NCBI GenBank assembly: GCA_965221775.1
Contig: CBDCSU010000006.1
Location: forward strand, 1,376,001-1,440,000
DNA length: 64,000 nucleotides
Direction of reading: 5' to 3'
From: Candidatus Latescibacterota bacterium
Lineage (GTDB): Bacteria > Latescibacterota > UBA2968 > UBA8231
Shown here: piece after piece, positions 37,730 to 64,000 of the stretch
How positions within the stretch are numbered: position 1 is the first letter of the stretch
Layout of the letters: each line of letters begins with the position of its first letter
Notes under the pieces: generated by a model
Database searches by the model: none
Seen by the model: the letters and a program-made list of their open reading frames with translations, nothing else
Told to the model about the DNA's origin: nothing
Position numbers and translations under genes: made by a program

Positions 37730-37745
37730 CTCCGCAAGCCGCGGC

Positions 37746-38940: not shown

Positions 38941-40731
38941 TCATCCCTCCACCTCCTCGCTGGGGGGGCGGGCGGCGGCCAGCACCTCCGACATCTCGGC
39001 CTCGACCCGTTCGCGGACCTCCCGGGCCGAGGTCAGTGCCAGGCACTGGCGGGCCAGCTCCGTCATCCGCCCGATCTCCGCGGCTCTCAGCAGCTCCCTC
39101 ACCTCCGGGATCTGGGGCGGGCTCACGCTCAACTGGCGCACCCCCAGCCCCAGAAGGAGCAGGGCGGCCACCGGGTCGGCGACCATCTCGCCGCAGATGT
39201 TCGTCGGGATCCCCGCCCCCTGCGAGGCCTCGGCGACCTGCCGGATCAGGCGAAGGACGGCCGGATGCAGCGGCTGGTATAGCTCGGCCACGCGCGCCGT
39301 ACCGCGGTCGACGGCCAGGGTGTACTGGACCAGGTCGTTGGTCCCCAGGCTGAAGAAGTCGACCTCCCCGGCCAGCTGCTCGGCGGTGATCGCCGCCGAC
39401 GGCACCTCGATCATCACCCCCACCTGGCAGTCGGCCCTGTGGTCGATCCCCTCGCGGCTCAGATCGGCCGCGGTCTCGGCGATCATCTCCCGGGCCTGCC
39501 GGATCTCCTCCAGGCCGCTGATCATGGGCAGGAGGATGCGCGTCTCGCCGTGGACGGCGGCCCTCAGGATGGCGCGCAACTGGGTCTTGAACAGGTCCGG
39601 ATTGTCGAGACAGATGCGGATGCCCCGCCAGCCGAGAAAGGGATTGGCCTCCGGGGGCGAGTCGACGGCGTGGATGAGCTTGTCCCCCCCGAGGTCGATG
39701 GTGCGGATCACCACCGGCTGCGGCGCCATGGCCTTGACGATCCTGGAATAGCAGTCGAGCTGGTCGGCCTCCGAGGGCAACCCGTACCCGAGGTAGAGGA
39801 ACTCGGTGCGGAGCATGCCCACGCCCCGGGCGCCGTTGCGCACCGCCAGGTCGATCTCCTGCGGCAGGTCGAGATTGGCCAGGAGCACCACCTCCTCGCC
39901 GTCGCGGGTCACCGTGGGCAGGTCCGCCCGCCGGCTCAGCTCCCGCTCGCGGCGCAGCTGCCGGCGGCGGCGGGTGCGGAAGCGCCGCAGGGTCGCCGCG
40001 TCGGGACGCACGTGCACGGTGCCCTCGTCGCCGTCGACGACCAGCAGATCGCCGGCGCGCACCGCCCAGGAAGCCCTCCCCGTTCCGACCACCGTGGGCA
40101 GTCCGAGAGAACGGGCGATGATGCTGGTGTGGGACGTCTCCCCTCCCACGTCGGTGACCAGGCCCGTCACCAGCCGCCGGGCCAGCTGGGCGGCTTCGGA
40201 AGGCAGCAGGTCGCGGGCGACGATCACGGTGTTGGAGCGCAGCGTCTGCAGACCGGAGAACCCGCCCCCCGCCAGGTGCACGAGAACCTGTTGCTCGATG
40301 TCCTTGAGGTCCCCCACCCGGGCGCGCAGGTACTCGTTGTCGATCTTCTCGAACTCCCGGCGAAGGGCGCCCATGGTGGCGGCGAAGGCGCCCTCGGCCG
40401 AGCGCCTGGCGGAGCGGATGCGCTCGATCGTCGCGTCGCGGACCTGCACGTCCTCGAGCATGGCCAGCTGGGCGTCGAAGATCAGCGCCAGGTCGGTCCC
40501 GTGCTCGTGCTCGACGCGCTGGCGGGTGCGGCGCACGTCGCCGGCCACCGCCTCCAGGGCGGCGCGGAAGCGCCCCACCTCGGCCTCCACGCGATGGGCG
40601 GGGACCTTCCTCGGCGAGCCGGCGGCGGGACTCTCCACCCGGTGGGTGAAGGCCTTGCCGATGGCGATCCCGGGCGAGGCCGGGATGCCCTCGATCCTCC
40701 GGTAGGTCCCGCGCTGGGTCGATTGGCTCAC
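38941..40731 (-). CDS. ptsI: PEP-protein phosphotransferase (PTS enzyme I)
   Basis: TSHTSIIAR phospho-His motif, [25 protein letters not shown] and ICGE. Confidence 0.95.
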
Positions 40732-40738
40732 GGCGTCC

Positions 40739-41008
40739 TCAGGTACTCTCGAAGTCTCCGCCGAGCAGTCCGGTCACCGCCTCCAGGGCGGCCTCGGCAT
40801 CGCTGCCCTCGGCCTCGACCACCACCTCGGAGCCATGCTCGGCGGCGAGCATCATCACCCCCATGATGCTCTTGCCGTTGATGCGGTTCACGTCGCCCTT
40901 GCTCAGATAGATATCGGCCTCGTAGCGCGAGGCCGCCTGCACGAGGAGGGTGGCGGGACGGGCGTGGATGCCCAGCTTGTTCGTGACCTTCACGCTCTTG
41001 CGGATCAT
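40739..41008 (-). CDS. ptsH: Phosphocarrier protein HPr
   Basis: GIHARP (His15) and GKSIMGVM (Ser46). Confidence 0.95.
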   Translation of the reverse strand: MIRKSVKVTNKLGIHARPATLLVQAASRYEADIYLSKGDVNRINGKSIMGVMMLAAEHGSEVVVEAEGSDAEAALEAVTGLLGGDFEST

Positions 41009-41045: not shown

Positions 41046-41795
41046 TCAGCCCTCGGCGATGTGGACCGCGGCGCTCAGCTCCCGCAGGCGGCCCGGGTCG
41101 TTCTCCACGGCCGTGCCGGTCACCACGAAGGCGGCGCCTCCCTCGACCTTGTCGCGCGCCGTGCGCGGATCGCGGATGCCGCCGCCGACGATCACCGGCA
41201 GGTCGACGTACCGGGAGACGGCCCGCACCATCGGGGTGGGCACGGAATCGCGGGCCCCCGAGCCGGTCTCGAGGTAGACGAGCCTCATGCCGAGATACTG
41301 GGCGGCCAGGGCGTGGGCCATGGCGATGTCGTCCTTGCCGCGCGGTATGGGCCGCGTGGAGCTCATGAACTCCGTCGATGTCAGGGTGCCGGATTCGACC
41401 AGCATGTAGGCCGTGGAGATGACCTCCATGCCGTACTCCTTGAGCAGCGGGGCGGCGCGGACCTGCTGCCCGATGAGCAGCTCGGGGTTGCGGCCGCTCA
41501 CCATGCACAGGTACAGGATCGCGTCGGCCGTGCGCACGACCTGTCCCGCGTCCCCCGGAAAGGAGATGACGGGGATCTGCACGAGGGCGCGCAGGCGCTC
41601 GAAGAGCTCGGCGTTGCGTCCGGTCGAGAGCATCAGGCTGGTGCCCACGAGGATGCCGTCGGCCCCCGCCTCGGCGCACATCGAGGCCCGCCTTTCCAGG
41701 TCTTTCAGGGGCAGGCGGTCGGGGTCGAGGAGGGTGAGATAGCCCGCGCCGCGCCGCGCCCGTGCCTCTAGCAGCTGTTCGAGGGTGCTTTTCAT
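41046..41795 (-). CDS. Geranylgeranylglyceryl/heptaprenylglyceryl phosphate synthase (group II GGGPS-like)
   Basis: LLDPD, FPG, SGRNPELLIG and YLGMRLVYLETGSGA...VGGGIR motifs. Confidence 0.88.
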   Translation of the reverse strand: MKSTLEQLLEARARRGAGYLTLLDPDRLPLKDLERRASMCAEAGADGILVGTSLMLSTGRNAELFERLRALVQIPVISFPGDAGQVVRTADAILYLCMVSGRNPELLIGQQVRAAPLLKEYGMEVISTAYMLVESGTLTSTEFMSSTRPIPRGKDDIAMAHALAAQYLGMRLVYLETGSGARDSVPTPMVRAVSRYVDLPVIVGGGIRDPRTARDKVEGGAAFVVTGTAVENDPGRLRELSAAVHIAEG

Positions 41796-41813
41796 CGTCC
41801 CGCGGCCTGTGCG

Positions 41814-50591: not shown

Positions 50592-50620
50592 TTGACGGAG
50601 TGCGGAACGGAGCCGATAAT
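50592..50620 (+). promoter_or_regulatory. Putative sigma70 promoter for lysA
   Basis: TTGACG-17 bp-GATAAT, about 55 nt upstream of ATG 50675. Confidence 0.6.
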
Positions 50621-50674: not shown

Positions 50675-51955
50675 ATGACGACCGCCCCAGAGCCTCTCCG
50701 CTTCCTTGACGAGGACCAGGTTCGAGCCCTTCAGAATCGCTTCGGCACGCCGCTCTACGTGTACGATCAGGAGACGCTGGAGGCCCAGGCACAGCAGGCC
50801 CTTCAGCTGCCCGCTCCATTCGGCCTGACGGTGCGCTACGCCATGAAGGCCTGTCCCTCGGCGGGGGTGGTGCGTGTCTTGACGAGGGCGGGGCTGCACA
50901 TCGACGCCAGCTCGGGCTGGGAGGCTCGACGCGCCATCGCCGCGGGCATCCCGGCGAAGCACATCCTGCTGACCACCCAGCAGCTGCCCGACGACTTCGA
51001 GGAACTGGTCGGCCTGGGGGTCCGCTTCAACGCCTGCTCTCTCGGCCAGCTCAGGGCTTACGGAGAGCGCTTTCCGGGCGCCGAGGTCGGCATCCGCCTC
51101 AATCCCGGGCTCGGCTCGGGACACTCCACCCGGACCAACGTGGGCGGGCCCTCCGCCAGTTTCGGGATCTGGCACACGCACCTGGAACGGGCCCTCGAGT
51201 CGGCACGCACGGACGGCCTGCGCATCACCCTCCTGCACACCCACATCGGCTCGGGAAGCGACCCGGAGGTGTGGCAGCACTGCGCCCGCCTGACGCTGAA
51301 CCTCGTCCGGCACCTGCCCGACGTGGCCGCCGTCAACTTGGGCGGGGGTTACAAGATCGGGCGGATGAGCGACGAGTCCTCCACCGACCTGCTCCATGCC
51401 GCGGGGCCGATCGTCGACGAGCTGCGGCGCTTCGCCACCGACGGCGGCCCCCGCCTGCGCCTGGAGATCGAGCCCGGCACCTTCCTGGTGGGCAACGCCG
51501 GGGCCGTGGTGGCCAGCGTGATCGATGTGGTTGACACCGGCAAGGAGGGTTTCTCCTTCATCAAGACGGACACGGGGATGACCGAGATCCTCCGTCCGAG
51601 CATGTACGGCGCCCAGCACCCCCTCACCGTGGTCCCGCGGGAGGACGGCGACCGTCCGCCGCGGGAGTACCTCGTCGTCGGCCACTGCTGCGAGAGCGGG
51701 GATGTCCTGACGCCGGCCCCTGGAGACCCGGAGGCGCTGCGGGTGCGCCCCCTCGCCGAGGCGCTGGTGGGCGATGCCGTCGTCATCGGCGGCGCCGGGG
51801 CCTACTGCGCGGGCATGTCCGCCAAGAACTACAACTCCTTCCCCGAGGCGCCGGAGGTGTTGCTGGACACGGACGGCGGCTTCCACCTGATGCGCAGGCG
51901 CCAGACGCTCGACCAGGTGATCGCCAACGAGTCCGTGCCCGACTTCCTCCTCTGA
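50675..51955 (+). CDS. lysA: Diaminopimelate decarboxylase
   Basis: GTPLYVYD, YAMKA (PLP Lys), HIGSG, NLGGG, EPG, CESGD and GAYC...YNS motifs. Confidence 0.9.
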   Translation: MTTAPEPLRFLDEDQVRALQNRFGTPLYVYDQETLEAQAQQALQLPAPFGLTVRYAMKACPSAGVVRVLTRAGLHIDASSGWEARRAIAAGIPAKHILLTTQQLPDDFEELVGLGVRFNACSLGQLRAYGERFPGAEVGIRLNPGLGSGHSTRTNVGGPSASFGIWHTHLERALESARTDGLRITLLHTHIGSGSDPEVWQHCARLTLNLVRHLPDVAAVNLGGGYKIGRMSDESSTDLLHAAGPIVDELRRFATDGGPRLRLEIEPGTFLVGNAGAVVASVIDVVDTGKEGFSFIKTDTGMTEILRPSMYGAQHPLTVVPREDGDRPPREYLVVGHCCESGDVLTPAPGDPEALRVRPLAEALVGDAVVIGGAGAYCAGMSAKNYNSFPEAPEVLLDTDGGFHLMRRRQTLDQVIANESVPDFLL

Positions 51956-51993
51956 TTCGCTGCCCGCCTCGGCGGCGGTCTATATTGGGCCGC

Positions 51994-52431
51994 ATGGTTG
52001 CGAGCGATCCGACCGCCAACCGGCACGGCCCTCTCGACTGGACGGCCCATCCGCTCCGCGAGGAGCCCGCCTGGAAGTCGGCGGCCCTGGGCGCCCTGAT
52101 CGTCGGGTTCTCCGCCCTGGCCGCCGCAAGCCTCGGCGGCGCCGTGTATGGTCTGATCTCGCTGGTGGCGCTGGCGGCAGCCACCGTCCGCTACCTGCTG
52201 CCCACGCGCTATCTCCTCGACGACCAGGAGGCTTCCTGGCGCCAGCTGACCTGGCGCCGCCGGTCGTGGTCCACCTTTCGCCGCGTCGACCGCCACGCCG
52301 ACGGCATCTTCCTGAGCCCCTTCCGGCGGCCGAGCCGGCTCGACTCCTTCCGGGGGGTGTTCCTGCGCTTCGGCCCCGGCGTCGACGCCGACGAAGTCGT
52401 AGCCCTGGCACGGGACCGTGTCCCCGCTTGA
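51994..52431 (+). CDS. Small membrane protein (2 TM + PH-like cytoplasmic domain), unknown function
   Basis: Two hydrophobic segments followed by PTRY...W..FRR...LSPF..PSRLDSFRG; first gene of the operon. Confidence 0.65.
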   Translation: MVASDPTANRHGPLDWTAHPLREEPAWKSAALGALIVGFSALAAASLGGAVYGLISLVALAAATVRYLLPTRYLLDDQEASWRQLTWRRRSWSTFRRVDRHADGIFLSPFRRPSRLDSFRGVFLRFGPGVDADEVVALARDRVPA

Positions 52432-52750
52432 GCGCCTGCGGCGCGGCTGGGCCCACGCCTTCGCCCTCGACTCCGGGGAACCCCTCTCCGAGGAGGAGCG
52501 GGCCCTCATCGAGCGCCTGGCGCGCCTCGTGGTGCGCCGCCGCATGACGGCGCCGGCCCTGATGGCGCTGGAGAGCACCCGGCCCCTGAGCTTCATGGGC
52601 AGCCAGGTGCTGGCCTTCGCCGGCCCCATGCTCAAGATCGCCTTTTCCCCCGCGGAGTACGACCACCTTCAAAGGCTGCTGGAGAGGCGCCGCAGCATCG
52701 ACTGGATCATCGAGGCGATCTCCGAGAGAGAAGACCGGCGCCGTGGATAA
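52418..52750 (+). CDS. Small hypothetical protein
   Basis: Overlaps both neighbours; IERLAR.VVRR.MT.PA...LES.RPL.F.GSQ segment. Confidence 0.7.
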   Translation: MSPLERLRRGWAHAFALDSGEPLSEEERALIERLARLVVRRRMTAPALMALESTRPLSFMGSQVLAFAGPMLKIAFSPAEYDHLQRLLERRRSIDWIIEAISEREDRRRG

Positions 52751-54605
52751 GCTCGATGTGATCATCGCCACCGACTGTGGCAGCACCACCACCAAGGCGA
52801 TCCTCATCGAGCGCCGGGAGGAAGGCTACCGGCAGACCTTCCGCGGCGAGGCCCCGACCACCGTGGAGGCGCCCTTCGAGGACGTGACCCGCGGCGTGCT
52901 CAACGCCATCCAGGAGGTGGAGGAGCTGTCCGGGCGGCAGATCCTGGACGGCGAGACGATCATCACCCCGGCGGCGGACGGACGGGGCGTCGACATCTAC
53001 ATCTCCACCTCCAGCGCCGGCGGCGGCCTGCAGATGATGGTGGCCGGCGTCGTGCAGACGATGACCGGCGAGAGCGCCCAGCGCTGCGCCCTGGGGGCCG
53101 GGGCGATCGTCATGGACGTGCTGGCCTCCAACGACGGCCGTCAGCCCCACGAGAAGATCGAGCGCATCCGCCACCTGCGGCCCGACATGGTGCTGCTGTC
53201 GGGCGGCACCGACGGCGGCACCATCTCCCACGTGGTCGAGCTGGCGGAGTACGTGGCCGCCGCCGACCCCCGGCCGCGGTTCGGCGCCGGCTTCGAGCTG
53301 CCCGTGATCTTCGCCGGCAACCGGGACGCCGGCCCCGAGGTGGAGCGCGTCCTCGGCGAGCGCACGGCCCTGCACCTGACCGAGAACCTGCGCCCCATCC
53401 TGGAGCGCGAGAACCTGGGCCCGGCGCGGCACGTGATCCACGACCTGTTCCTCGAGCACGTGATGGCCCAGGCGCCCGGGTACTCGAAGCTGATGTCGTG
53501 GACCGCCGCCCCGATCATGCCGACGCCGGCGGCGGTGGGCCGCATCATGCAGGCCATCGCCCGGCGCAGGGGGATCGACGTGCTCGGCGTCGACATCGGC
53601 GGGGCCACCACGGACGTCTTCAGCGTCTTCCACACCGCCGGCGACGGACAGTCGGATCCGGCGGATTCCGGAGCGCAGGACTCCGCCGAAGGAGGGCCGA
53701 CCCCGGTCTTCAACCGCACGGTGAGCGCCAACCTCGGCATGTCCTACAGCATCTCCAACGTCCTGGCCGAGGCCTCGCTGGAGAACGTGGTGCGCTGGAT
53801 CCCCTTCGACATCGACGAGGCCGACCTGCGCGACCGCATCAAGAACAAGATGATCCGCCCCACCACGATTCCCCACATGCTCGAAGAGCTGCAGATCGAG
53901 CACGCCGTGGCCCGCGAGGCGCTGCGGCTGGCCCTCGTCCAGCACCGGGAGCTGGCCGTTGGCCTGAAGGGGGTGCAGACCGAGCGCACATTGTCCGACG
54001 TCTTCGACCAGGAGGCCACGGGCGAGAGCCTGGTGGACATGATGGTCCTCGATCTGCTGGTGGCCAGCGGAGGGGTGCTCTCCCACGCCCCGAGCCGCGC
54101 CCAGACGGCTGCCATGCTCGTCGACGCCTTCCAGCCCGAGGGCGTCACCCAGCTCGCCGTGGACAGCATCTTCATGATGCCCCACCTCGGGGTGCTGGCC
54201 TCCGTGGACGAACCGGCCGCCGCCGAGGTCTTCGAGCGCGACTGCATCATCTACCTCGGCACCTGCGTCGCCCCCTCTGGCGACGGCAAGCCCGGCGAGG
54301 TGTGCGCCACGTACGAGCTGCACCTGACCGGCGGACCGGTGCGGGAAGAGCTGCGGTGCGGCGAGCTGCGGCTGCTGCCGCTGGGCGAAGGGGAGGAAGC
54401 GGAGATGACGATCTCGCCAGCACGCGGCCGGGACGCGGGATCCGGCCCCGGGCAGGAGCATCGCGCCAAGGTCCGGGGCGGCGTCGTGGGACTGATCCTC
54501 GACGGCCGGGGCCGTCCCCTCGAGCTGCCGGAGGAAGCGGCGGACCGGCGCGCCCGGGTCGTGGAGTGGAGCGGCGCCCTCGGGCTCTACGGGGAGACGG
54601 ACTGA
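52743..54605 (+). CDS. GlmL/MutL (glutamate mutase L)-like ASKHA ATPase
   Basis: Phosphate-1 TDCGSTTTK, SSAGGGL, LSGGTDGG, MPTP.AV, phosphate-2 VDIGGATTDVFS, RTVSANLGM and SGGVLSH motifs. Confidence 0.8.
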   Translation: MDKLDVIIATDCGSTTTKAILIERREEGYRQTFRGEAPTTVEAPFEDVTRGVLNAIQEVEELSGRQILDGETIITPAADGRGVDIYISTSSAGGGLQMMVAGVVQTMTGESAQRCALGAGAIVMDVLASNDGRQPHEKIERIRHLRPDMVLLSGGTDGGTISHVVELAEYVAAADPRPRFGAGFELPVIFAGNRDAGPEVERVLGERTALHLTENLRPILERENLGPARHVIHDLFLEHVMAQAPGYSKLMSWTAAPIMPTPAAVGRIMQAIARRRGIDVLGVDIGGATTDVFSVFHTAGDGQSDPADSGAQDSAEGGPTPVFNRTVSANLGMSYSISNVLAEASLENVVRWIPFDIDEADLRDRIKNKMIRPTTIPHMLEELQIEHAVAREALRLALVQHRELAVGLKGVQTERTLSDVFDQEATGESLVDMMVLDLLVASGGVLSHAPSRAQTAAMLVDAFQPEGVTQLAVDSIFMMPHLGVLASVDEPAAAEVFERDCIIYLGTCVAPSGDGKPGEVCATYELHLTGGPVREELRCGELRLLPLGEGEEAEMTISPARGRDAGSGPGQEHRAKVRGGVVGLILDGRGRPLELPEEAADRRARVVEWSGALGLYGETD

Positions 54606-55732
54606 TGGCCCACGCCTATACCCCGGGCCTGTACGTCACCCCCCACACCATCCTTCGGCGGACCCGCCGGCTGCCGTTGAAGGGCGATGTGCTGGCCGCC
54701 CCCGGCGACACCGTGGAGCGGCAGCAGGTGGTAGCCCGCACCGAGCTGCCCGGCAGTGTCTCCACGGTGAACGTCGTCAACCGGCTGGGCATCACCGCCG
54801 AGGAGCTGCCGGGGTTCATGCTCAAGGCGGAGGGAGACGAGGTGAGGCGGGGCGAGCCGATGGCCGAGACGCGGCCCTTCATCAAGTGGTTCAGGACCAC
54901 GGTGGAGTCCCCCATCGACGGCACGGTGGACAGCATCTCGCCGGTGACCGGGCAGGTCCTGCTCCGGGAGCCGCCCCTGCCCGTGGAGGTGCCGGCCTAC
55001 GTCGACGGCCAGGTGGTCGAGGTCATCGAGGACGAAGGGGTGGTGGTGGAGACACGGGGGGCCTTCGTGCAGGGGATCTTCGGTGTCGGCGGCGAGCGCT
55101 ACGGGCCCCTCCACATGCTCGCGGAGAACCCCGGGGAGCCGCTGGCAGCGCACCGGATCGACGACGGGTGCTCGGGCCGGATCGTGGTGGTCACGGGTCT
55201 GTTGTCGTACGAGGCGATCGACCGGGCCCGCGAGGTGGGCGCCGCCGGGGTGATCGGCGGCGGGATCCACGATCGGGACCTGCGGCGGCTGCTGGGCTAC
55301 GACCTCGGCGTCGCCATCACCGGCACCGAGGAGATCGGGCTGACGGTGATCGTCACCGAGGGGTTCGGCGAGATCGCCATGGCCGGCCGGACCTTCGAGA
55401 TCCTCCGGGAGTGCCACGGACGGCAGGCCTCGATCTCGGGGGCGACCCAGATCCGGGCGGGGGTCATGCGCCCCGAGATCATCGTGCCCGACCTGACGGC
55501 ACCGGGAGAGGCGGAGGCCGGCGAGGGAAGCCGCGGGGGAGGGATGGCGCAGGGAGACCCCCTTCGTATCATCCGGGCCCCGTACTTCGGCCGCATCGGC
55601 AGGGTGGGCGAGCTGATCCCCGACCTGCGGCCGGTCGAGTCCGGCGCCTCGGTGCGGGTGCTGGAGGTCGAGTTCGAGGACGGCTCGCGGGCCGTGGTGC
55701 CGCGGGCCAACGTGGAGCTGATCGCAGGATGA
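54605..55732 (+). CDS. Uncharacterised protein with repeated sandwich-barrel-hybrid-like motifs and C-terminal KOW/SH3-like domain
   Basis: ATG coupled to the upstream stop (TGATG); G.V...PGD.V, EGDEVRRGEPMA...SPIDGTV and AYVDGQV motifs; C-terminal GDPLRIIRAPYFGRIG...PRANVE. Confidence 0.75.
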   Translation: MAHAYTPGLYVTPHTILRRTRRLPLKGDVLAAPGDTVERQQVVARTELPGSVSTVNVVNRLGITAEELPGFMLKAEGDEVRRGEPMAETRPFIKWFRTTVESPIDGTVDSISPVTGQVLLREPPLPVEVPAYVDGQVVEVIEDEGVVVETRGAFVQGIFGVGGERYGPLHMLAENPGEPLAAHRIDDGCSGRIVVVTGLLSYEAIDRAREVGAAGVIGGGIHDRDLRRLLGYDLGVAITGTEEIGLTVIVTEGFGEIAMAGRTFEILRECHGRQASISGATQIRAGVMRPEIIVPDLTAPGEAEAGEGSRGGGMAQGDPLRIIRAPYFGRIGRVGELIPDLRPVESGASVRVLEVEFEDGSRAVVPRANVELIAG

Positions 55733-56940
55733 CGGACTTCGGTAAGACCCTGACCCTGGTCGCCGGACTCGGGCTGCTGGCCGGAGCCGGAGCGCAGGAG
55801 CCGGCGGCGCTCGAGATCGATCTCTTCGACACGCCGAACGACGACGGCGGCAGCCTGACCCTGACCTGGCGCGCCGATGCCGCCCCCGCGGGCAGCCGCT
55901 ACCGCGTCTACCTCGCCGAATTGCCGGCGGGCCCCTTCCACGTGGCCGCCGAGACCATGGCCCCCGGGCTGATGTCGGACGAGCCGGCCCTCTTCGGCCG
56001 CGATCCCGCCAACGCCGACCGCTACGTGCTTCACCTCACGGGCTACACGCCCGAGGGGGAGGAGAAGCCGAGGGCCCTCGAAGACGGCACGACGTACCAG
56101 GCCCGTCTCGTGGCGGGGGACGGCGCCGCGGAGCGGCGCAGCGAGGTGGCGGCGGCGGCGCCCGCCGCCAACCTGTTCAACACCGCCAAGCTGAACAACC
56201 TCGTCCTCGCCGTGGCCCTGTCGGTGGTGATCCTACTGTTCATCGCCGTGGCCCGGCGCCGGGAGCTGTACATCCGGCGCATCGGGGGCCTGGAAGCCCT
56301 CGACGAGGCCCTGGGGCGGGCCACCGAGATGGGCCGCTCGGTGCTGTTCGTCCACGGCCTGAAGGGCATGGACCAGATCCCGACGATCGCCGCCGTCAAC
56401 ATCCTCGGGCGGGTGGCGCGGCGCACGGCGCGCCTCGACGCCGAGCTGCGGGTGGCCAACGTCGACCCCGTGGTCATGTCGGTGAGCCAGGAGGTGGTGA
56501 AGGAGGCCTGCCTGGAGGAGGGCCGGCCCGACGCCTACCGGCCGGGGGACGTGTTCATGGCCGGCACCGAGCAGTTCTCCTACGCCGCGGCCCTGGAGGG
56601 CATCATGGTCCGCGACCGCCCCGCGGCGCACATCATGATGGGCTACTTCTACGCCGAGTCGCTGCTCCTCACCGAGACGGGCAGCACTACCGGAGCCATC
56701 CAGATCGCCGGCACCGACGCCTACACGCAGCTGCCGTTCTTCGTCACCACCTGCGACTACACCCTGATGGGGGAGGAGCTGTACGCGGCCAGCGCCTACC
56801 TGTCGAAGGAGCCGCGCCTCCTCGGCAGCCTGCGCGGCCAGGACGTGGGCAAGGCGGTGCTCATCCTCGTGCTCATCGCCGGCACCGCCCTTTCCACGGC
56901 CGGCGTCGACTTCCTGACCCACCTGTCCGCCTCCCTGTGA
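55729..56940 (+). CDS. Membrane protein: signal peptide + FN3-like domain + DUF6754-like domain
   Basis: ATGA overlap; DTPNDDGGSLTLTW (FN3-like), TM helix, IRRIGGLEALDEALGRATEMGR, FYAESL and QLPFF...CDYTL.GEELYAASAY motifs, C-terminal TM. Confidence 0.75.
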   Translation: MTDFGKTLTLVAGLGLLAGAGAQEPAALEIDLFDTPNDDGGSLTLTWRADAAPAGSRYRVYLAELPAGPFHVAAETMAPGLMSDEPALFGRDPANADRYVLHLTGYTPEGEEKPRALEDGTTYQARLVAGDGAAERRSEVAAAAPAANLFNTAKLNNLVLAVALSVVILLFIAVARRRELYIRRIGGLEALDEALGRATEMGRSVLFVHGLKGMDQIPTIAAVNILGRVARRTARLDAELRVANVDPVVMSVSQEVVKEACLEEGRPDAYRPGDVFMAGTEQFSYAAALEGIMVRDRPAAHIMMGYFYAESLLLTETGSTTGAIQIAGTDAYTQLPFFVTTCDYTLMGEELYAASAYLSKEPRLLGSLRGQDVGKAVLILVLIAGTALSTAGVDFLTHLSASL

Positions 56941-56950
56941 GAGGAAGCCG

Positions 56951-57610
56951 ATGCCATTCCTGACACGGACCCTGCCCTTCGCCATCTGCTTCCTCTTCGG
57001 CGTCGCCGGCTTCGCCATCTTCTACAGCCCCCACCCCTATGCGGAAGAGACCACACAGGCCTTCGCCCTGTGGCTGCGGGTGGTCTCCGCCTTCGCCTAC
57101 TTCCTCGGTCTCTACAGCCTCCTCAACCTGCACTGGTCCAAGATCCGGCTGCGGCAGTCCGGCTGGGCCTACAGCCTGATCGTCTACATCAGCTTCGGCG
57201 TCATGTGCCTCTTCGTCCTCTACAACGAGGGGCACGGACCTCTGCAGGCGCAGTCGAAGACCGGCGCCTACCAGTGGATGTTCACCCACATCCACGTGGC
57301 CAGCTCGGCGACGATGTTCTCCACCCTCGCCTTCTTCATCTCCTCGGCGGCGTACCGCACCTTCCGGGCGCGCACCTCCGAGGCGGCGATCCTGCTGGTC
57401 TCGGCGGTGATCGTCATGCTCGGACGGGTGCCGATCGGGGGTTACCTGTCGGAGACCATCCCCGAGGCCATGCAGTGGCTCATGACGGTGCCCAACATGG
57501 CGGCCAAGCGCGGCATCCTGCTCGGCGTCAGTCTCGGCGCCATCGCCACCTCCCTGCGCATCATCTTCGGCATCGAGCGTTCCTATCTCGGCGGCGGGGG
57601 GGAGGAGTAG
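56951..57610 (+). CDS. Polytopic membrane protein (~6 TM), unknown function
   Basis: GAGGA RBS; multiple hydrophobic helices; FS.LAFFI.SAAYR.FR and RGIL.G..LG motifs. Confidence 0.8.
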   Translation: MPFLTRTLPFAICFLFGVAGFAIFYSPHPYAEETTQAFALWLRVVSAFAYFLGLYSLLNLHWSKIRLRQSGWAYSLIVYISFGVMCLFVLYNEGHGPLQAQSKTGAYQWMFTHIHVASSATMFSTLAFFISSAAYRTFRARTSEAAILLVSAVIVMLGRVPIGGYLSETIPEAMQWLMTVPNMAAKRGILLGVSLGAIATSLRIIFGIERSYLGGGGEE

Positions 57611-57613
57611 ACC

Positions 57614-58444
57614 ATGGACCGGCTGATCAACCTGGACCGCCGCTTCATCTTCGTCTTCGTCTTCCTGGGCGTGGCCATCCCCCTGCTCGTGGACATCCCC
57701 CTGCCGATCAAGCCGTCTCCCACGGTGCGCTCGGTGTACGACGAGATCGAGAGAGTGGCCGCCGAGGACGCCGGCCGGCCGGTGCTGGTCTCGTTCTCGT
57801 ACGGCGCCAGCACCGAGCCGGAGATGGTACCGATGACCCGCGCCGTCCTGCGCCACCTCTTCCAGCGCGGGCTGAAGGTGGTCGGCATCTGCCTGTGGCC
57901 CGATGCGGTGGGGCTCGCCCAGCCGGAGATGGACGAGCTGGCCGCCGAGTTCGGCCGCCGGTACGGGGTCGACTACGCTTTCCTTGGCTACAAGATCGGC
58001 TATCAGGCGGTGGTGCTGAACATGGGGCAGAGCGTGGCCGACACCTTCCCCTTCGACACCGAGGGGACCCCGGTGGGCGACCTGCCGGTGCTGGCGGGGG
58101 TGGAGAGCCTGAAGGACTTCTCCTTCGTCTTCGACTTCGCCGCCGGCGATTCCATGGAGTTCTGGTGGATCCCGTACGGCCAGGAGAAGCACCGGTTCCC
58201 CTTCGGCGGGGGCTGCACGGCGGTGATGGCCCCCGACCTCTACCCCTTCCTGCAGTCGGGGCAGCTCGTGGGCCTCCTCGGCGGGCTGGCCGGGGCCGCC
58301 GAGTACGAGACGCTGGTGGACGCGCCCGGTCGAGCCACCGACGGCATGCAGCCGCAGTCCGTGACCCACGTGATCATCGTCCTGTTCATCATCCTGGGCA
58401 ATATCGCCTACTTCGCCTCCCGCCGGCGGGACAGGCAGGCCTGA
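57614..58444 (+). CDS. Membrane-anchored protein (N- and C-terminal TM, soluble alpha/beta domain), unknown function
   Basis: GGAGG RBS; YGVDY..LGY and GLLGGL.GAAEYE motifs. Confidence 0.8.
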   Translation: MDRLINLDRRFIFVFVFLGVAIPLLVDIPLPIKPSPTVRSVYDEIERVAAEDAGRPVLVSFSYGASTEPEMVPMTRAVLRHLFQRGLKVVGICLWPDAVGLAQPEMDELAAEFGRRYGVDYAFLGYKIGYQAVVLNMGQSVADTFPFDTEGTPVGDLPVLAGVESLKDFSFVFDFAAGDSMEFWWIPYGQEKHRFPFGGGCTAVMAPDLYPFLQSGQLVGLLGGLAGAAEYETLVDAPGRATDGMQPQSVTHVIIVLFIILGNIAYFASRRRDRQA

Positions 58445-58451
58445 GGACGCC

Positions 58452-59174
58452 ATGACTCGAGACCTCTACCTGTTCGCCGGCTTCGTCGCCCTCTTCGCCG
58501 CGGCCAACGCCGTGCTCATCGGCAACGGACTGCTGGAGGCCGACCGGGAGGGGGCGGGCGTCATCGTCGCCGCCGGGTTCACGCTGGCCCTGTACAGCTT
58601 CCTCTACAAGGACAATCCCCTGTTCAAGGCCGCCGAGCATGTGTACGTGGGCGTCGCGGCGGCGTACGTCTTCGGCATCACCTGGTACAACGTCTTCCTC
58701 GACGACATCATCCGGACCTACGCCGATCTGGACGGCGGCGGCGGCGGACACGACCCCTGGGTGATGCTGTTCCCCACCCTCCTGGGCGTGCTGATGCTCA
58801 CCCGGTTCTCGCGCCGCTTCGGCTGGCTGAGCCGGCTCTCCTTCGCCTTCGTCGTCGGTGTCGGCGCCGGCCTCACCATCCCCCGGTACCTGTCCTCTTT
58901 CGTCCTGGGGCAGATCGAGCCCAGCCTGGCGCCCATCACCCTCTCCTGGGAGGGGTTCAACCTGCTGCTGATCCTGGTGGGGGTCCTGACCGTGCTCATC
59001 TACTTCTTCTTCTCCGTGGAGCACACCGGGGCCGTGGGCACCGCCTCCAAGGTCGGCATCTGGTTCCTGATGATCTCCTTCGGAGCCTCCTTCGGGTACA
59101 CGGTCATGGCCCGCCTGTCGCTGCTCATCGGGCGGGTCCGCTTTCTGCTCGACGACTGGCTGAACCTGATGTAG
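58452..59174 (+). CDS. Polytopic membrane protein (~7 TM), unknown function
   Basis: GAGG RBS; YSFLYKDNPLFK.AEH..VG, YFFFS and FGASFG.TVM.R motifs. Confidence 0.8.
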   Translation: MTRDLYLFAGFVALFAAANAVLIGNGLLEADREGAGVIVAAGFTLALYSFLYKDNPLFKAAEHVYVGVAAAYVFGITWYNVFLDDIIRTYADLDGGGGGHDPWVMLFPTLLGVLMLTRFSRRFGWLSRLSFAFVVGVGAGLTIPRYLSSFVLGQIEPSLAPITLSWEGFNLLLILVGVLTVLIYFFFSVEHTGAVGTASKVGIWFLMISFGASFGYTVMARLSLLIGRVRFLLDDWLNLM

Positions 59175-59196: not shown

Positions 59197-60174
59197 TCAG
59201 ATCTCGTCCTTGCGGATGCAGGCGGCGGTGTGGCCGCCGCCACCGACGGGCTCCAGCTCCGGGACCTGCCCGCGGCAGGCGTCGGCGGCGAAGGGGCAGC
59301 GGGGGTGGAAGGCGCACCCCGCGGGCGGGTTCACGGCGCTCGGCGTCTCCCCGAGGATCGGCTGGCGCTCGCGGCGGCGGCGTGGGTCGGCGACGGGCAC
59401 GGCCTCGAGCAGGGCCCGCGTGTACGGATGGGCCGGCCGCGCGAACACCTCGTCCCGGGAGCCGACCTCCACGAGGCGTCCCAGATACATGACGGCGACT
59501 TGGTCGCTGAGGTACTCCACCACCGACAGGTCGTGGGAGATGAGCAGGTAGGAGAGGCCGCGCTCCTGCTGGAAGCGCACGAGGAGGTTGAGCACCTGCC
59601 CCTGCACCGAGACGTCGAGGGCGGAGACCGGCTCGTCGGCGACGATGACCTTCGGCCCCAGGGCGAGGCTGCGGGCGATGCCGATGCGCTGCCGCTGGCC
59701 GCCGGAGAACTCGTGGGGATAGCGGTCCTGCACGGCCGGGTCGAGACCGACGGCCTCGAGGAGACCGTCGACCTGCTCGCGCCGCTCGGCCCGCGTCCCC
59801 AGGGAGTGCACGTCGAGGGGCTCGCGCACGGTCTCGCCCACCGACAGCCTCGGGTTGAGCGAGGAGTAGGGGTCCTGGAAGATCATCTGCATGTCGCGCC
59901 GCAGGGCGAACAGCTCCTGCGCCGTGGCCCGCGCCAGGTCGCGCCCCTCGAAGCGGACGGCGCCCGCCGTCGGATCTTCGAGCCGCATCATGGTCCGCCC
60001 CAGGGTCGACTTGCCGCAGCCGGACTCACCGACCAGGCCCAGGGTCCGGCCCGGCGGCAGGTCGAAGGAGACGCCGTCCACGGCCTTCACGCTCTGCCTC
60101 CGGCGCCCGAAGAGGCCGCCGCCCACCGGGTAGTGCTTGCGCAGGCCGCGGACCTCGACGACGGGGGCGCTCAC
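59197..60174 (-). CDS. Oligopeptide ABC transporter ATP-binding protein (OppF/DppF-like)
   Basis: GESGCGKST, FSGGQRQR, DEPVSALD and C-terminal GC.FHPRC Fe-S tail; GTG 60174. Confidence 0.92.
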   Translation of the reverse strand: MSAPVVEVRGLRKHYPVGGGLFGRRRQSVKAVDGVSFDLPPGRTLGLVGESGCGKSTLGRTMMRLEDPTAGAVRFEGRDLARATAQELFALRRDMQMIFQDPYSSLNPRLSVGETVREPLDVHSLGTRAERREQVDGLLEAVGLDPAVQDRYPHEFSGGQRQRIGIARSLALGPKVIVADEPVSALDVSVQGQVLNLLVRFQQERGLSYLLISHDLSVVEYLSDQVAVMYLGRLVEVGSRDEVFARPAHPYTRALLEAVPVADPRRRRERQPILGETPSAVNPPAGCAFHPRCPFAADACRGQVPELEPVGGGGHTAACIRKDEI

Positions 60175-61145
60175 ACCGCCTCCAGGGGATAGTGGCAGGC
60201 GGCCAGGTGGCCGTCGGCGACCGGTTCCAGGGGCGGGTCCTGGCGGCGGCAGAGCTCCTCGGCGCGGGGACAGCGGTCGGCGAAGCGGCAGCCCGGCGGC
60301 GGATCGAGGAGCGAAGGGACGACCCCCTCGATGGTGGGCACGCCGTCGCCCCGGGTCCGGCCCGGACGCAGGATGCTGTCGAGGAGGCCCCGCGTATAGG
60401 GGTGGCGGCTGCCCTCGAAGAGCTCGATGACGCCGCAGCGCTCCACCACCTTGCCGGCGTACATGACCACCACCTCGTCGCAGGTCTCGGCCACGACCCC
60501 CATATCGTGGGTGATGAGCAGGATGGCGGTGCCCAGCTCCCTCTGCAGCTGCTTCATCAGGTGCAGGATCTGGGCCTGCACGGTCACGTCGAGGGCGGTG
60601 GTCGGCTCGTCGGCGATGAGCAGGTCCGGCTCGCACATGAGGGCCATGGCGATCATGATGCGCTGCTTCATGCCGCCGCTGAGCTCGTGGGGGTACTGGT
60701 CCAGCCGGCTCTCGGCGTCGGCGATCCCCACGCGCTGCAGCATCTCCGCCATGCGGGCGCCAGCGGCCTCTCCCTGCAGGCCGAAGCGCTTCTCCAGGAC
60801 CTCCCCAAGCTGGCGGCGCACGGTGAAGACCGGGTTGAGGGAGGTCATGGGGTCCTGGAAGATCATGGCGATCTCCCGGCCGCGGATCGCCGGCATCTCG
60901 TCGGGGTCGACGGCGAGCAGGTCCCTCCCCTTCCACAGGACCCGTCCGTCCTCGATGCGCCCGGGCGGGTCGGGGATCAGGCGCATCACCGACATGGCGC
61001 TGACGCTCTTGCCGCACCCGGACTCGCCGACGATCCCCACGGTGGCGCCGGCGCGCACCTCGAAGGAGACGCCGTCCACCGCCTGCACGACGCCGTCCTC
61101 CGTGCGGAAGACGGTGCGCAGGTCCTCGACTCGCAGAAGCGCCAT
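60171..61145 (-). CDS. Oligopeptide ABC transporter ATP-binding protein (OppD/DppD-like)
   Basis: GESGCGKS, LSGGMKQR, DEPTTALD, HPYT and GCRFADRC motifs. Confidence 0.92.
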   Translation of the reverse strand: MALLRVEDLRTVFRTEDGVVQAVDGVSFEVRAGATVGIVGESGCGKSVSAMSVMRLIPDPPGRIEDGRVLWKGRDLLAVDPDEMPAIRGREIAMIFQDPMTSLNPVFTVRRQLGEVLEKRFGLQGEAAGARMAEMLQRVGIADAESRLDQYPHELSGGMKQRIMIAMALMCEPDLLIADEPTTALDVTVQAQILHLMKQLQRELGTAILLITHDMGVVAETCDEVVVMYAGKVVERCGVIELFEGSRHPYTRGLLDSILRPGRTRGDGVPTIEGVVPSLLDPPPGCRFADRCPRAEELCRRQDPPLEPVADGHLAACHYPLEAV

Positions 61146-61161
61146 GGGCAGAGCCGTCCGC

Positions 61162-62985
61162 CTACTCCGGGGCCGCGGCGGCGCGCAGGGCCGCCTCGAT
61201 GCGGTCCTTCACCCGGTAGGGGTCGATGTCGACGACCGGGTCCGCCCCGAGGGAACGGCCCTCGGCCATCGCTTCCCGCAGCCTTTCCCGCCGGTCCTCG
61301 TCGACCCAGAAGACCTGCCAGTCGGTCATCTGCTGGGTGCGCTTGGGGAAATAGAACTCCGGGAAGCGGAGGTGGTCCCAGTGCAGGAGCCGCATGAAGG
61401 GCGCGTGCCAGAAGGGCACGTAGAAGGCCTCGTCCTGAACGATGGCGTCGAGGTCGTGCATCGCCGCCAGCCGGCGCTCCTTGTCGGTGTCGAAGCGGTA
61501 GACGTCGATGAGGGAGTCGGTGTGCGCGGTCCCGAAGGCCCAGACGTTGTTGTTGTTCTTCGACTCCTTGAAGACGGTGGAGAAGTACTGGTGGGGGCTC
61601 GGGAAGAGGCCGGCGGTGCGCCCCATGATCGTCATCTCGTACTCCCGCTCCAGGCCGTTGCGGAAGGCGGTGCCGGGCTCCAGCAGGCGCAGGGACATGT
61701 CGACGCCGAAGCGCTGGAAGGTCTGCTTCACCACCGTCATATGGCGCTCCAGTCCCTTGCTTCCGTACGAGAGGGTGAAGGCGGCGCGGGTGCCCTCGCC
61801 GTCGACGAGAATGCCGTCCTCGCCCCGGCGGGTGAAGCCCGCCGCCTTCAGGTGCTCGCGCGCCTTGCGCGGGTCGAAGCCGTACGGCACCAGGTCCCGG
61901 TTCTCGTACTCGGTGCCGGTGAAGGCCGAGACCTGCCGGTAGTAGGCATTGTGCATCAGCTTGGAGTTGATCTCGTCGAAGTGGAAGAGGTACTGGATCG
62001 CCTTGCGGAAGTCCTTGTTCCGGAAGATCGGCCGCTCGAGGTTCATGGCGAAGCCGTACACGCCCTGGGGAAAGTCGATGAAGAGCCGCTTGCGGTGGGC
62101 CCAGCCCTGCTGCAGGGCCTCGAAGTCCATCTCCTCGGCCCACATGCGGGCCGTGTTCACGCTGTAGTAGTCGAGCTCTCCCTTCTTGAAGAAATCGAAG
62201 GCGCGGTCGGTGTCGTCGATGACGCGCACGTGGATGCGGTCGACGTTGTAGAGGCCCCGCATGTAGTGCTTGTCCCGGCCCCACCAGTCCTTCAGGCGTT
62301 CGAAGACGACGTACTGCCCCGGCACCCGCTCGGTGAGCACGTAGGCGCCCTGCACCGGCAGGACGGCGTCGTTGTAGCGGTCGGGAAACCCCTCCTCGAG
62401 GGTGACGGCGTGCCTCGGGGTCGCCCAGAGAGCGAACATGTCCAGGGGACGCCAGCTCTCGAACCGGCCCACCACCTTGAGCACGTGAGGCTCCAAGGCG
62501 ACGACCTCCTCGAAGTAGTCCTCGGCGTACTGGTTGAAGAAGGGGTCGACGATGTGCTCGCTGCGCATCATCTGCCAGGTGTGCACGTAGTCCTCGGCCG
62601 TGATCGGCCTGCCGTCGCTCCAGCGGGCGTCGGGATCGAGCCTGTAATAGATGGTCCGCCCGTCCTCCTGCACCGACCAGTGGGTGGCCATGACCGGGAT
62701 GTGGCGGTCCGTCGTGGGGTGGCGCGTGACCATGGTCAGGGCCATGGTGAGGGCCCGCTTCCAGGCGGCGAAGGCGTCGTTGGCGTTGGGGCCGACGATG
62801 CGCAGGGTCAGGGGGTAGGCGGTCATGAAGGTGCGGAACTCGCCCCCCTTGCGGGCGGCGGCATCGCCGATGGGCGGGTCGTCGGTGTTGGTCTCCCACT
62901 CGATGGCGGAGAGATCCTCGGCGCCGCCACGGGCGCCCAGGGCGAGGAGGAGCAGGGGGATGATGAGAGGGAAGCGGCGCCCCAT
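61162..62985 (-). CDS. Family 5 extracellular solute-binding protein (YejA-like)
   Basis: Signal peptide from ATG 62985; ARKGG, ARWSDGRPITAED and GLYNVDRI motifs. Confidence 0.85.
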   Translation of the reverse strand: MGRRFPLIIPLLLLALGARGGAEDLSAIEWETNTDDPPIGDAAARKGGEFRTFMTAYPLTLRIVGPNANDAFAAWKRALTMALTMVTRHPTTDRHIPVMATHWSVQEDGRTIYYRLDPDARWSDGRPITAEDYVHTWQMMRSEHIVDPFFNQYAEDYFEEVVALEPHVLKVVGRFESWRPLDMFALWATPRHAVTLEEGFPDRYNDAVLPVQGAYVLTERVPGQYVVFERLKDWWGRDKHYMRGLYNVDRIHVRVIDDTDRAFDFFKKGELDYYSVNTARMWAEEMDFEALQQGWAHRKRLFIDFPQGVYGFAMNLERPIFRNKDFRKAIQYLFHFDEINSKLMHNAYYRQVSAFTGTEYENRDLVPYGFDPRKAREHLKAAGFTRRGEDGILVDGEGTRAAFTLSYGSKGLERHMTVVKQTFQRFGVDMSLRLLEPGTAFRNGLEREYEMTIMGRTAGLFPSPHQYFSTVFKESKNNNNVWAFGTAHTDSLIDVYRFDTDKERRLAAMHDLDAIVQDEAFYVPFWHAPFMRLLHWDHLRFPEFYFPKRTQQMTDWQVFWVDEDRRERLREAMAEGRSLGADPVVDIDPYRVKDRIEAALRAAAAPE

Positions 62986-62999
62986 GGCGGTCCTTTCGT

Positions 63000-64000
63000 C
63001 TATCGGTAGTGGGCGTACTGCTTGGGGTCGAAGGCCTCGCGGATCGACTCGCCCACGAGGGTCACCAGCACGAGAGTTGCGGAGAGGGCCGAGAAGGGGG
63101 CCACGGAGAGCCAGATCTTGTCGCGGTTTTGGCTGTCCAGGGCCTGGTCGATCATCTCGCCCCAGCTCGGCGTCGGCGCCGGCAGGCCGTAGCCGAGGTA
63201 GTCCAGGGCCGTCAGGGCGCTGATGGCGCCGACGAGAGCGAAGGGCGTGATCGTCACCAGGGGCGTCAGGCAGTTGGGCAGCAGGTGGCGGAAGATCAGC
63301 CGCCGGCGCGAGGCCCCGAAGGAGCGCGCCGCCAGGCAGTAGTCGCGCGTCTTCTCGCGGTAGACCTCGGTGCGCATGTAGTAGGTCATGCGGATCCACT
63401 CGAAGAGGGCCATGATCACCAGCAGCAGCCCGAAACTGGGCTTGAAGAACGTGGCCAGGAGGATGACCACGTAGAGGAAGGGCAGGGTCGACCAGATCTC
63501 TATGAAGCGCTGGCTGAGGATATCGAAGCGGCCGCCCACGAAGCCCTGCAGGGCGCCGATGGCGGTGCCCGCCGCCTGGCTGGTGAAGACCAGGGCCACG
63601 GCAAAGAGGATGGAGATGCGGAAACCGTAGAGGAGCCGGGCGAAGACGTCCCGGCCCTGGGAGTCGGTGCCGAACCAGTGCCGGGAGTCGGGGGGGTTGG
63701 GCGGCGGATCTTCATAGCTGAAGTCGGGCTCGTAGGGGTCGAAGGGGACGACCGGCATCCACACCCAGTCGCCGCCGCCGGCCTCCTGGAACCGCGCCCG
63801 CAGGGCCGCGTAGTCGGCCTCGACGTCGTCGAAGCCGTACTCGTCCTGCTGGCCGAAGGTGGCCATGTCGTGGAAGCGGAAAGTGGGGAAGAAGTACTCC
63901 CCCTGGTAGTGGACGACGATGGCCCGCCGGTTGGCGACGTAGTTGGAGAGCAGGGACAGGACGGTGAGGCCCAGCAGGATCAGGAAGGAGACGTAGCCCC
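63000..64000 (-). CDS. Peptide ABC transporter permease (YejE/OppC-like), 5' end beyond the window
   Basis: FGTDSQGRDVFARLLYGFRIS, EAA-like AARSFGAS..R.IFRHLLPN and PSWGEM motifs; frame stays open to the window edge. Confidence 0.88.
   Translation of the reverse strand, partial: GYVSFLILLGLTVLSLLSNYVANRRAIVVHYQGEYFFPTFRFHDMATFGQQDEYGFDDVEADYAALRARFQEAGGGDWVWMPVVPFDPYEPDFSYEDPPPNPPDSRHWFGTDSQGRDVFARLLYGFRISILFAVALVFTSQAAGTAIGALQGFVGGRFDILSQRFIEIWSTLPFLYVVILLATFFKPSFGLLLVIMALFEWIRMTYYMRTEVYREKTRDYCLAARSFGASRRRLIFRHLLPNCLTPLVTITPFALVGAISALTALDYLGYGLPAPTPSWGEMIDQALDSQNRDKIWLSVAPFSALSATLVLVTLVGESIREAFDPKQYAHYR

Follow-up and report, generated by a model that had tools for sequence, protein, structure and literature searches.

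The operon G1–G8, from a sponge-associated bacterium of the Latescibacterota, is one copy of a gene set that is widespread and highly conserved but has not been studied. Best supported, on structural and evolutionary grounds, is that it forms a two-module system under strong constraint, which consists of an actin/Hsp70-fold (ASKHA) ATPase, G3, with an obligate partner carrying a swivelling domain, G4, and of a membrane unit of four proteins, G5 to G8. The genes lie at positions 51994-59174 of the window, by which we mean the whole stretch of 64,000 nucleotides that was analysed. All eight open reading frames (ORFs) are co-directional on the + strand. The junctions G1/G2, G2/G3, G3/G4 and G4/G5 are overlaps of 14, 8, 1 and 4 nt, and G5/G6, G6/G7 and G7/G8 are gaps of 10, 3 and 7 nt, in agreement with the initial annotation of the stretch, which had described eight co-directional genes with overlaps or gaps of 10 nt or less. 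The G+C content of the region is ≈70%, as in its surroundings. We found no publication on the system; literature searches on DUF6754, PF13941 and the glutamate mutase L family (TIGR01319) gave nothing relevant. New in this contribution are the domain architecture of G4, the finding that the ectodomain of G5 varies, the bounds set on a link to Opp-type peptide importers and the evidence from RNA libraries.

Conservation and distribution of the gene set

Two sets of homologous loci were compared. The genome loci are the best 80 of 582 DUF6754 relatives in a species-genome collection, with the genes located by tblastn; their records are named Latescibacterota, Gemmatimonad* and Planctomycetota/Brocadiales. 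G5 was present in all 80 loci, G6 and G7 in 79 each, G8 in 76, G4 in 69, G3 in 68, G2 in 66 and G1 in 51. Wherever present, the genes shared one strand and a fixed order; several of the misses fell at contig ends. The distant loci were obtained by searching metagenome contigs, many of them short, with Marinimicrobia-type G3-G4 fusions, which yielded 58 distinct loci with a G+C content of 0.37-0.71. Here G3 was present 58 times, G4 36, G2 32, G5 29, G6 25, G7 21, G8 18 and G1 6 times. The order was kept except in three loci that had G5–G8 divergent from G3-G4, and hardly any flanking genes were shared (298 ORFs fell into 250 clusters). The recurrence of order and strand in 80 genome and 58 metagenome loci confirms that the gene arrangement is beyond chance; the synteny by which the initial annotation had proposed to check the system was thus observed across phyla. 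G1 is mainly a gene of the closer lineages (51/80 genome loci vs 6/58 distant loci).

Eight loci of Brocadia/Kuenenia-type anammox bacteria contain G5–G8 only, and in 5 of 5 tested genomes with such a locus a G3 orthologue is located elsewhere in the genome. The separate G2-G3-G4 operon of Brocadia-type genomes showed a G2 match in four of five regions and none in the fifth (L137). Among 67 long G4 homologues, 66, from several candidate phyla, are G3-G4 fusions because they carry PF13941; in the two fusions that were read, the G4 motif AH(A/S)YTPGL is retained behind a low-complexity linker. In some loci Opp genes are inserted, and G4 then stays with G5–G8. A G4-G5 fusion (P0121) was considered as a Rosetta stone and rejected: it is a truncated, single-member read-through that keeps the internal signal peptide, and is probably an artefact.

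DUF6754 occurs in 143 of the 168 genomes from the phylum of the window (39 of the 52 of high quality), mostly in single copy. Family f10 of the same phylum is a natural loss clade, with DUF6754 in 0 of 13 genomes, several of which are 94-97% complete.

DNA matches to the stretch came from sponge and marine metagenomes. Contigs from four RNA libraries (X16-X19) were also found on the operon. X17 and X18 contributed pieces (0-3 differences) that span the junctions G4/G5, G5/G6 and G6/G7, besides pieces that fall on G3, G5, G7 and G8. Library X16 covers G3–G8 at ≈95% identity, and X19 contributed one contig of 2666 nt over G6–G8 at ≈93% identity.

Additional genes were seen in the operons of some relatives. 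Single genes are inserted at L013:7370-8638 and L030:11453-12409; the inserts encode a DUF445 protein, located between G3 and G4, and an MPAB/Lcp-type oxygenase-like protein, located between G5 and G6. The anammox loci L055 and L059 have acquired IS200-type transposases and a 23S-IVS protein. Four of the distant metagenome loci (L140, L144, L161 and L162; e.g. L144:14276-16120) contain an ORF of ≈615 aa without Pfam match between G5 and G6, which may be an extra subunit or the gene of an enlarged ectodomain.

The ATPase G3 and the glutamate mutase question

G3 (52743-54605, + strand) is a protein of 620 aa and matches PF13941 (MutL/GlmL) with residues 7-501 at E 8.7e-128; the match spans the entire profile (positions 1-450 of 450). 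Its phosphate-1 (DCGSTTTK), phosphate-2 (DIGGATTD) and adenosine (GGVL) motifs are all intact, so that the actin/Hsp70-fold ATPase with intact phosphate motifs of the initial annotation is confirmed by family match and motifs. A C-terminal extension of ≈120 aa follows the MutL domain. Identities to the copies in other genome loci amount to 61-94% across phyla, and there were no relatives of G3 among PDB sequences at E≤1.

Named members of the PF13941 family are described in one figure legend as a chaperone for glutamate mutase reactivation (PMC4682846, Fig. 4 legend). G3 scored below the cut-offs of the models for such proteins: 231.7 bits for the GlmL model NF040745 (equivalog cut-off 475), 201.5 bits for the Or-4 model NF040744 (cut-off 600) and 171.5 for a third GlmL-type NCBIfam model (cut-off 204). 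In the genome of the window (5.36 Mb, 96.8% complete) PF13941 and DUF6754 are each represented by a single gene and glutamate mutase E (PF06368) has 0 matches, and no mutase gene was present among the Pfam-scanned neighbours at other loci. The initial annotation had spoken of a GlmL-like ATPase without its mutase, and both the score for NF040745 and the genome bear this out. The conclusion that the G1–G8 system has nothing to do with glutamate mutase is supported because no GlmE is encoded in the genome; the label of G3 as a helper of a vitamin-B12 enzyme (“glutamate mutase L”) is a widespread mis-annotation.

The partner protein G4

G4 (54605-55732, + strand, 375 aa) is predicted as a three-domain partner or adaptor protein (model pLDDT, predicted local distance difference test, 84.3). 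Residues 10-150 are modelled as a barrel-sandwich hybrid, for which VIA-align found the N-terminal domains of NqrA/RnfC at Z 7.3-7.7, with 64 residues aligned at 20% identity; Z values below 8 are unspecific by the tool's own note and the barrel-sandwich fold is common. Residues 152-295 are modelled as a swivelling beta/beta/alpha domain. Its best match is the His domain of enzyme I of the phosphotransferase system (PTS; 2wqd_A, Z 9.2), followed by rifampin phosphotransferase (5hv1_A, 8.7), RraA (8.6), the C-terminal domain of pyruvate kinase (8.1) and aconitase X (7.8). Residues 310-375 resemble KOW/SH3-like domains (NusG KOW at Z ≈8; Spt5, PsaE and NdhS). A Foldseek search with the model agreed with these domains and gave glycerol dehydratase reactivase (1nbw_A) as a weak match (E 0.028, probability 0.66), whereas a search of the ESM Atlas with G4 returned its own family only. 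The hybrid-barrel and KOW domains of the initial annotation are thus both present in the model; the swivelling domain is additional and had been missed.

Pfam matches of G4 stayed below threshold, with 16.4 bits for RnfC_N (cut-off 25.6, E 0.0095) and 21 bits for Biotin_lipoyl (cut-off 22.1). A lipoyl or biotinyl carrier domain would have a modifiable lysine at the tip of its hairpin; the family alignment of G4 contains no invariant lysine, and K74 reads, by eye, as arginine in the distant fusion P0184. Two invariant segments stand out: the flexible N-terminal motif AH(A/S)YTPGL, and the loop S276..GATQIRAGV, which by eye lies at the position of the GGxTSHAA loop of phosphoenolpyruvate (PEP) utilisers. 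The only histidine conserved at ≥90% in 70 G4 sequences is H3. A phosphohistidine relay in G4 is not supported because no conserved histidine is found in the swivelling domain. Flavinylation (SGAT) of the loop was considered as well and rejected, the alanine being H or R in the fusions P0179 and P0184.

The membrane subunits and the small proteins

G5 (55729-56940, + strand, 403 aa) consists, in this order, of a signal peptide, an FN3 domain, a transmembrane (TM) helix, the DUF6754 alpha/beta domain and a second TM helix. Residues 146-398 match PF20539 (DUF6754) with E 1.3e-110 and 369 bits (cut-off 27), and residues 25-150 of the model form an FN3 domain (VIA Z up to 9.6), as expected from the initial annotation of a membrane protein with signal, FN3 and DUF6754-like parts. 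In the model, only the FN3 ectodomain and the two TM helices are confident; for the DUF6754 part, helices and strands are predicted to alternate, and its most conserved half (residues 279-366) has a pLDDT below 50. Invariant residues of DUF6754 include H209, C342, D343, Y344, E349 and E350. The distribution of charges places the domain presumably in the cytoplasm. At least 7283 matches were obtained in a search for the DUF6754 family. Long homologues (531 proteins of 707-1475 aa) keep the C-terminal domain, with 45-66% identity in DUF6754, and some of the 120 listed have PQQ propellers, fn3 or HEAT repeats as ectodomains. Judged by these comparisons, the ectodomain of G5 varies between lineages while DUF6754 stays. 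A complex prediction of G5(146-403) with G4 scored 0.00 against a mark of 0.32 and, being without controls, weighs neither way.

G6 (56951-57610, + strand, 219 aa) and G8 (58452-59174, + strand, 240 aa) are polytopic, with ≈6 and ≈7 TM helices. Between them, G7 (57614-58444, + strand, 276 aa) carries an acidic domain of ≈225 aa flanked by two TM helices, which presumably is periplasmic according to the charge distribution. All TM counts are approximate; a crude hydropathy scan with a strict threshold gave one peak for G1, two for G5, five for G6, two for G7, four for G8 and none for G2. Invariant residues are R136, R139, R159, N182, R187 and E209 in G6, and D54, K59, E62, R128, H191 and R221 in G8. 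No consistent Pfam family was found for G6 (25 members at E≤1, with ABC-related matches below threshold only) or for G8 (scans of individual members at E≤1). G7 had no Pfam, NCBIfam or PDB-sequence match and no usable named match in the ESM Atlas; a search of 1.84 billion proteins at E≤1e-3 assigned 4805 representative clusters to its family. Profile searches with G4–G8 against PDB sequences gave nothing significant (best E 0.0073-0.31), and none of the eight proteins matched a family of the PADLOC 2.0 anti-phage models at E≤0.01. The assumption that the membrane subunits match no characterised complex therefore held for Pfam, NCBIfam, PADLOC and PDB sequences. A paralogy of G5/G7 and of G6/G8, suspected by eye, was unsupported (hhalign probability ≤0.5%).

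G1 (51994-52431, + strand, 145 aa, with an alternative TTG start at 51985) is a small membrane protein; it has a hydrophobic hairpin (residues ≈30-75), a basic C-terminal domain and a conserved W92, G104 and FLsPf motif. The soluble module begins with G2 (52418-52750, + strand, 110 aa). Neither protein has a Pfam or NCBIfam match. A motif scan of all eight proteins detected neither Walker A nor CxxC motifs, consistent with an operon free of ABC (ATP-binding cassette) Walker and Fe-S motifs as annotated initially. The parallel claim that no DxHxxG protein is present requires a correction: the string DRHADG at residue 99 of G1 fits the pattern, and it is not conserved (D in 22/52, H in 32/52 sequences). 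We take this string to be a chance match because of its lack of conservation and because G1 is a small membrane protein; a B12-type motif in G1 was therefore rejected.

Link to peptide uptake genes

An Opp-type gene lies within 5 kb of the system in 48 of the 80 genome loci. Nineteen loci have the binding protein only, 17 OppD/F only and nine both. Four arrangements were seen. The binding protein may immediately precede G1, with a TonB-dependent-receptor-like gene located downstream (A); OppD-OppF may directly follow G8 and precede a PD40/peptidase protein of ≈1200 aa (B); binding protein, OppB and OppC may be inserted between G3 and G4, with OppDF after G8 (C); or the Opp operon is convergent, as in the window (D). 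OppDF remain after G8 even where the likely permease is ≈0.35 Mb away. Two genomes with OppDF after G8 and without permeases there (G006, G008) each have, elsewhere, exactly one OppB locus that lacks ATPases nearby. This OppB locus balances the OppDF pair, and the idea that OppDF are the ATPases of G5–G8 is accordingly not favoured. A quick tree (maximum likelihood, 73 OppD/F sequences) unites the interleaved OppD proteins in one clade (24 rows, approximate likelihood ratio test 97); sister to this clade are copies not linked to the system, among them one in the window genome (C5, ≈189-193 kb). Opp as a general partner was rejected outside the phylum of the window and a few anammox loci.

In L012:13341-20816 and relatives (15 loci) three genes are found downstream of G8: one is TonB-dependent-receptor-like with CarboxypepD_reg and Plug domains (≈1048 aa), one is unknown (≈1156 aa) and one is PorV-like. 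This Latescibacterota set looks like an outer-membrane uptake set.

Surroundings of the operon in the window

A lysA-like PLP (pyridoxal phosphate) decarboxylase gene (≈50690-51955, + strand) is located directly upstream of G1, and a GC-rich hairpin of eight pairs (51957-51978) lies between its stop codon and G1. The promoter-like site at 50592-50620 precedes lysA and is common to a tadA-like deaminase gene arranged back-to-back on the - strand; transcription of G1–G8 may read through from lysA. The initial annotation had taken from lysA a weak hint to amino acids; adjacency of lysA is confined to a few relatives.

Convergent on G8 is a complete Opp/Dpp-type peptide ABC operon (59197-63998, - strand) that encodes an OppF-like protein, an OppD-like protein (60171-61145), a family-5 binding protein (≈61162-63399) and a permease (63000-63866 and beyond). 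Both ATPases are of the ABC_tran+oligo_HPY type (Pfam).

Further features of the - strand are an ORF of 1175 aa with a DUF5723 C-terminus (34218-37745), the PTS enzyme I gene ptsI (38941-40773) and a PcrB-family (GGGP synthase-like) gene (41046-41813). These three are set amid the housekeeping genes metK, alaS, recA, recX, pgpA, pgsA, recR and dnaX.

Proposed mechanism and alternatives

We lean towards the view that G1–G8 is a self-contained, ATP-driven inner-membrane machine of two modules, the role of which in the present lineage would be tied to how peptides or amino acids are acquired. The cytoplasmic module would unite the ASKHA ATPase G3 with G4 as its obligate partner and with the small G2 protein, G1 being an addition of this lineage. 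The membrane module would comprise G5, with its variable periplasmic ectodomain and cytoplasmic DUF6754 domain, the polytopic proteins G6 and G8, and the doubly anchored G7. Binding and hydrolysis of ATP in G3 would move the swivelling domain of G4, and this movement could be passed on to the DUF6754 domain and to the polytopic subunits. The energy would then be spent at or across the membrane, where either a substrate is moved or the periplasmic domains of G5 and G7 are driven by mechanotransmission. In the phylum of the window the machine would act in the same pathway as the Opp-type peptide importer, the neighbouring peptidases and the outer-membrane receptor, and because of this presumed common pathway we link its job to peptide or amino-acid acquisition. 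We infer the contact between the modules, the topology, the direction of work and the substrate.

Several points weigh against this proposal. Nothing in the analyses made showed a contact between soluble and membrane module, and no inter-module fusion was present among the best 120 of the 531 long DUF6754 proteins. The fold of DUF6754 and its side of the membrane are read solely from charge rules because the conserved half of the domain has a pLDDT below 50. Many of the loci belong to related genomes and cannot be counted as independent. DNA may be present in RNA libraries, and their contigs are no proof of a single transcript. As to peptides, the flanking genes of the distant loci are variable, and the OppD/F proteins adjacent to the system in the window, as well as the anammox-linked ones, fall outside the interleaved clade of the quick tree. 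With a single weak OppF match in all 58 distant loci, we read the tie to Opp as real for the phylum of the window and not as part of the core. Of the peptide hint that the initial annotation drew from the neighbouring ABC genes, the connection within the phylum and its several arrangements stand, whereas the Opp operon of the window belongs to a different paralogue and distant loci are nearly devoid of Opp.

More tentatively, the operon could represent a new class of primary-active membrane machine, in which an ASKHA ATPase energises a four-subunit complex via a swivelling adaptor and which would be distinct from ABC, P-type, F/V-type and AAA+ systems. If so, mechanotransmission would probably reach the periplasmic domains, and the ectodomain would be swapped to suit the partners in the envelope or in nutrient uptake.

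The main rival to a membrane machine is a reactivase-like servicing of a membrane-bound enzyme, which we consider unlikely. G5–G8 would be the enzyme or a cofactor complex, and G3/G4 would open this client and exchange or load its cofactor, with no transport involved. The chaperone role that the figure legend in PMC4682846 gives to the named members of the G3 family points in this direction. The large subunit of the reactivases pairs an ASKHA ATPase with a swivelling domain, and the weak Foldseek match 1nbw_A belongs to such a protein; DUF6754 is rich in invariant polar residues (those listed above, from H209 to E350) as an enzyme might be. However, no cofactor motif was recognised (no CxxC, no conserved DxHxxG), the membrane subunits match no enzyme family, and a variable periplasmic ectodomain on G5 would be unexpected for an enzyme that faces the cytoplasm.

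Less likely still is a machine for the assembly or maintenance of the envelope that moves or inserts a lipid, a lipoprotein or a cell-wall peptide or precursor, while Opp recycles peptide by-products. Such a function would suit the near-universal, single-copy occurrence in the phylum of the window, the periplasmic domains on two subunits and a number of recurrent neighbours. The latter comprise LplA/LipB (17 loci), the fab genes fabHDGF (8-9 loci) and RNase III, with counts that range over 8-17 of the 80 loci, class IV aminotransferase (19 loci), LpxK (6 anammox loci), lysA and M19 dipeptidase. These genes, however, are housekeeping genes and lineage-specific, they were not seen in the 58 distant loci, and no subunit is tied to a known envelope pathway. 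A threonine synthase gene adjoins the anammox G2-G4 operon.

That two unrelated systems merely adjoin, G2-G4 as a soluble enzyme or kinase system and G5–G8 as a separate membrane complex, is very improbable. The modules do occupy separate operons in the five Brocadia-type genomes examined, and no reliable fusion between them was found; yet they are adjacent and in fixed order in 69/80 and 29/58 loci despite differing flanks, both were present in five of five genomes tested, and G4 and G5 overlap by 4 nt. A redox-driven ion pump of the Rnf/Nqr type or a relative of it can hardly be assumed: the alignment of the N-terminal domain of G4 with NqrA/RnfC (Z 7.3-7.7) and the weak RnfC_N match (E 0.0095) stand against a common and unspecific fold (Z <8), a best hhalign probability of 8.3% for G4–G8 against the ORF families of the clade's own Rnf/Nqr loci (rough alignments of stop-to-stop ORFs), the lack of an Fe-S motif in the operon and a canonical Rnf/Nqr locus already present in the genome.

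The proposed ATP-driven machine is of interest beyond the present lineage. The gene set is of great age and size and under strong constraint, and its carriers are ecologically important and mostly uncultured (sponge symbionts, Latescibacterota, anammox Planctomycetota and the bacteria with Marinimicrobia-type fusions). If G3 indeed powers the membrane module, this would be a new energy-coupling principle in membrane biology. The widespread mis-annotation as “glutamate mutase L” would be corrected. The tie to peptide uptake in the phylum of the window provides a concrete handle on function.

Comparison with known systems

ABC transporters differ from the operon in that G1–G8 contain no Walker A motif; the ABC genes nearby form a separate Opp operon. 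The mechanotransmission systems MacB, FtsEX and LolCDE (type VII ABC) offer a functional analogy only: they combine a cytoplasmic ATPase with large periplasmic domains and perform work outside the cytoplasm, whereas the operon has neither an ABC ATPase nor Walker A and shows no sequence similarity to them.

With GlmL/MutL, the accessory protein of coenzyme-B12-dependent glutamate (methylaspartate) mutase, and with Or-4 of ornithine degradation, G3 has the ASKHA domain in common over the whole Pfam profile. Unlike these proteins, it scores far below the equivalog cut-offs, has ≈120 extra C-terminal residues, occurs in a genome without mutase gene and is accompanied by G4 and the membrane genes in genome and metagenome loci. 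In structure, G4 residues 152-295 best match the phosphohistidine swivelling fold of enzymes that utilise PEP (PTS enzyme I, rifampin phosphotransferase, PPDK), in which the domain travels between sites; the swivelling domain of G4 lacks their conserved catalytic histidine.

The large subunit of diol/glycerol dehydratase reactivase (DdrA/GdrA; PDB 1nbw) unites an actin/Hsp70-fold ATPase and a swivelling beta/beta/alpha domain, which here lie on G3 and G4, two proteins that are fused in many lineages. In contrast to DdrA/GdrA, G3 and G4 have no B12 enzyme as client and show no sequence match, and the Foldseek row is weak (E 0.028). By analogy, the reactivase pair is a possible model for how G3 and G4 work together.

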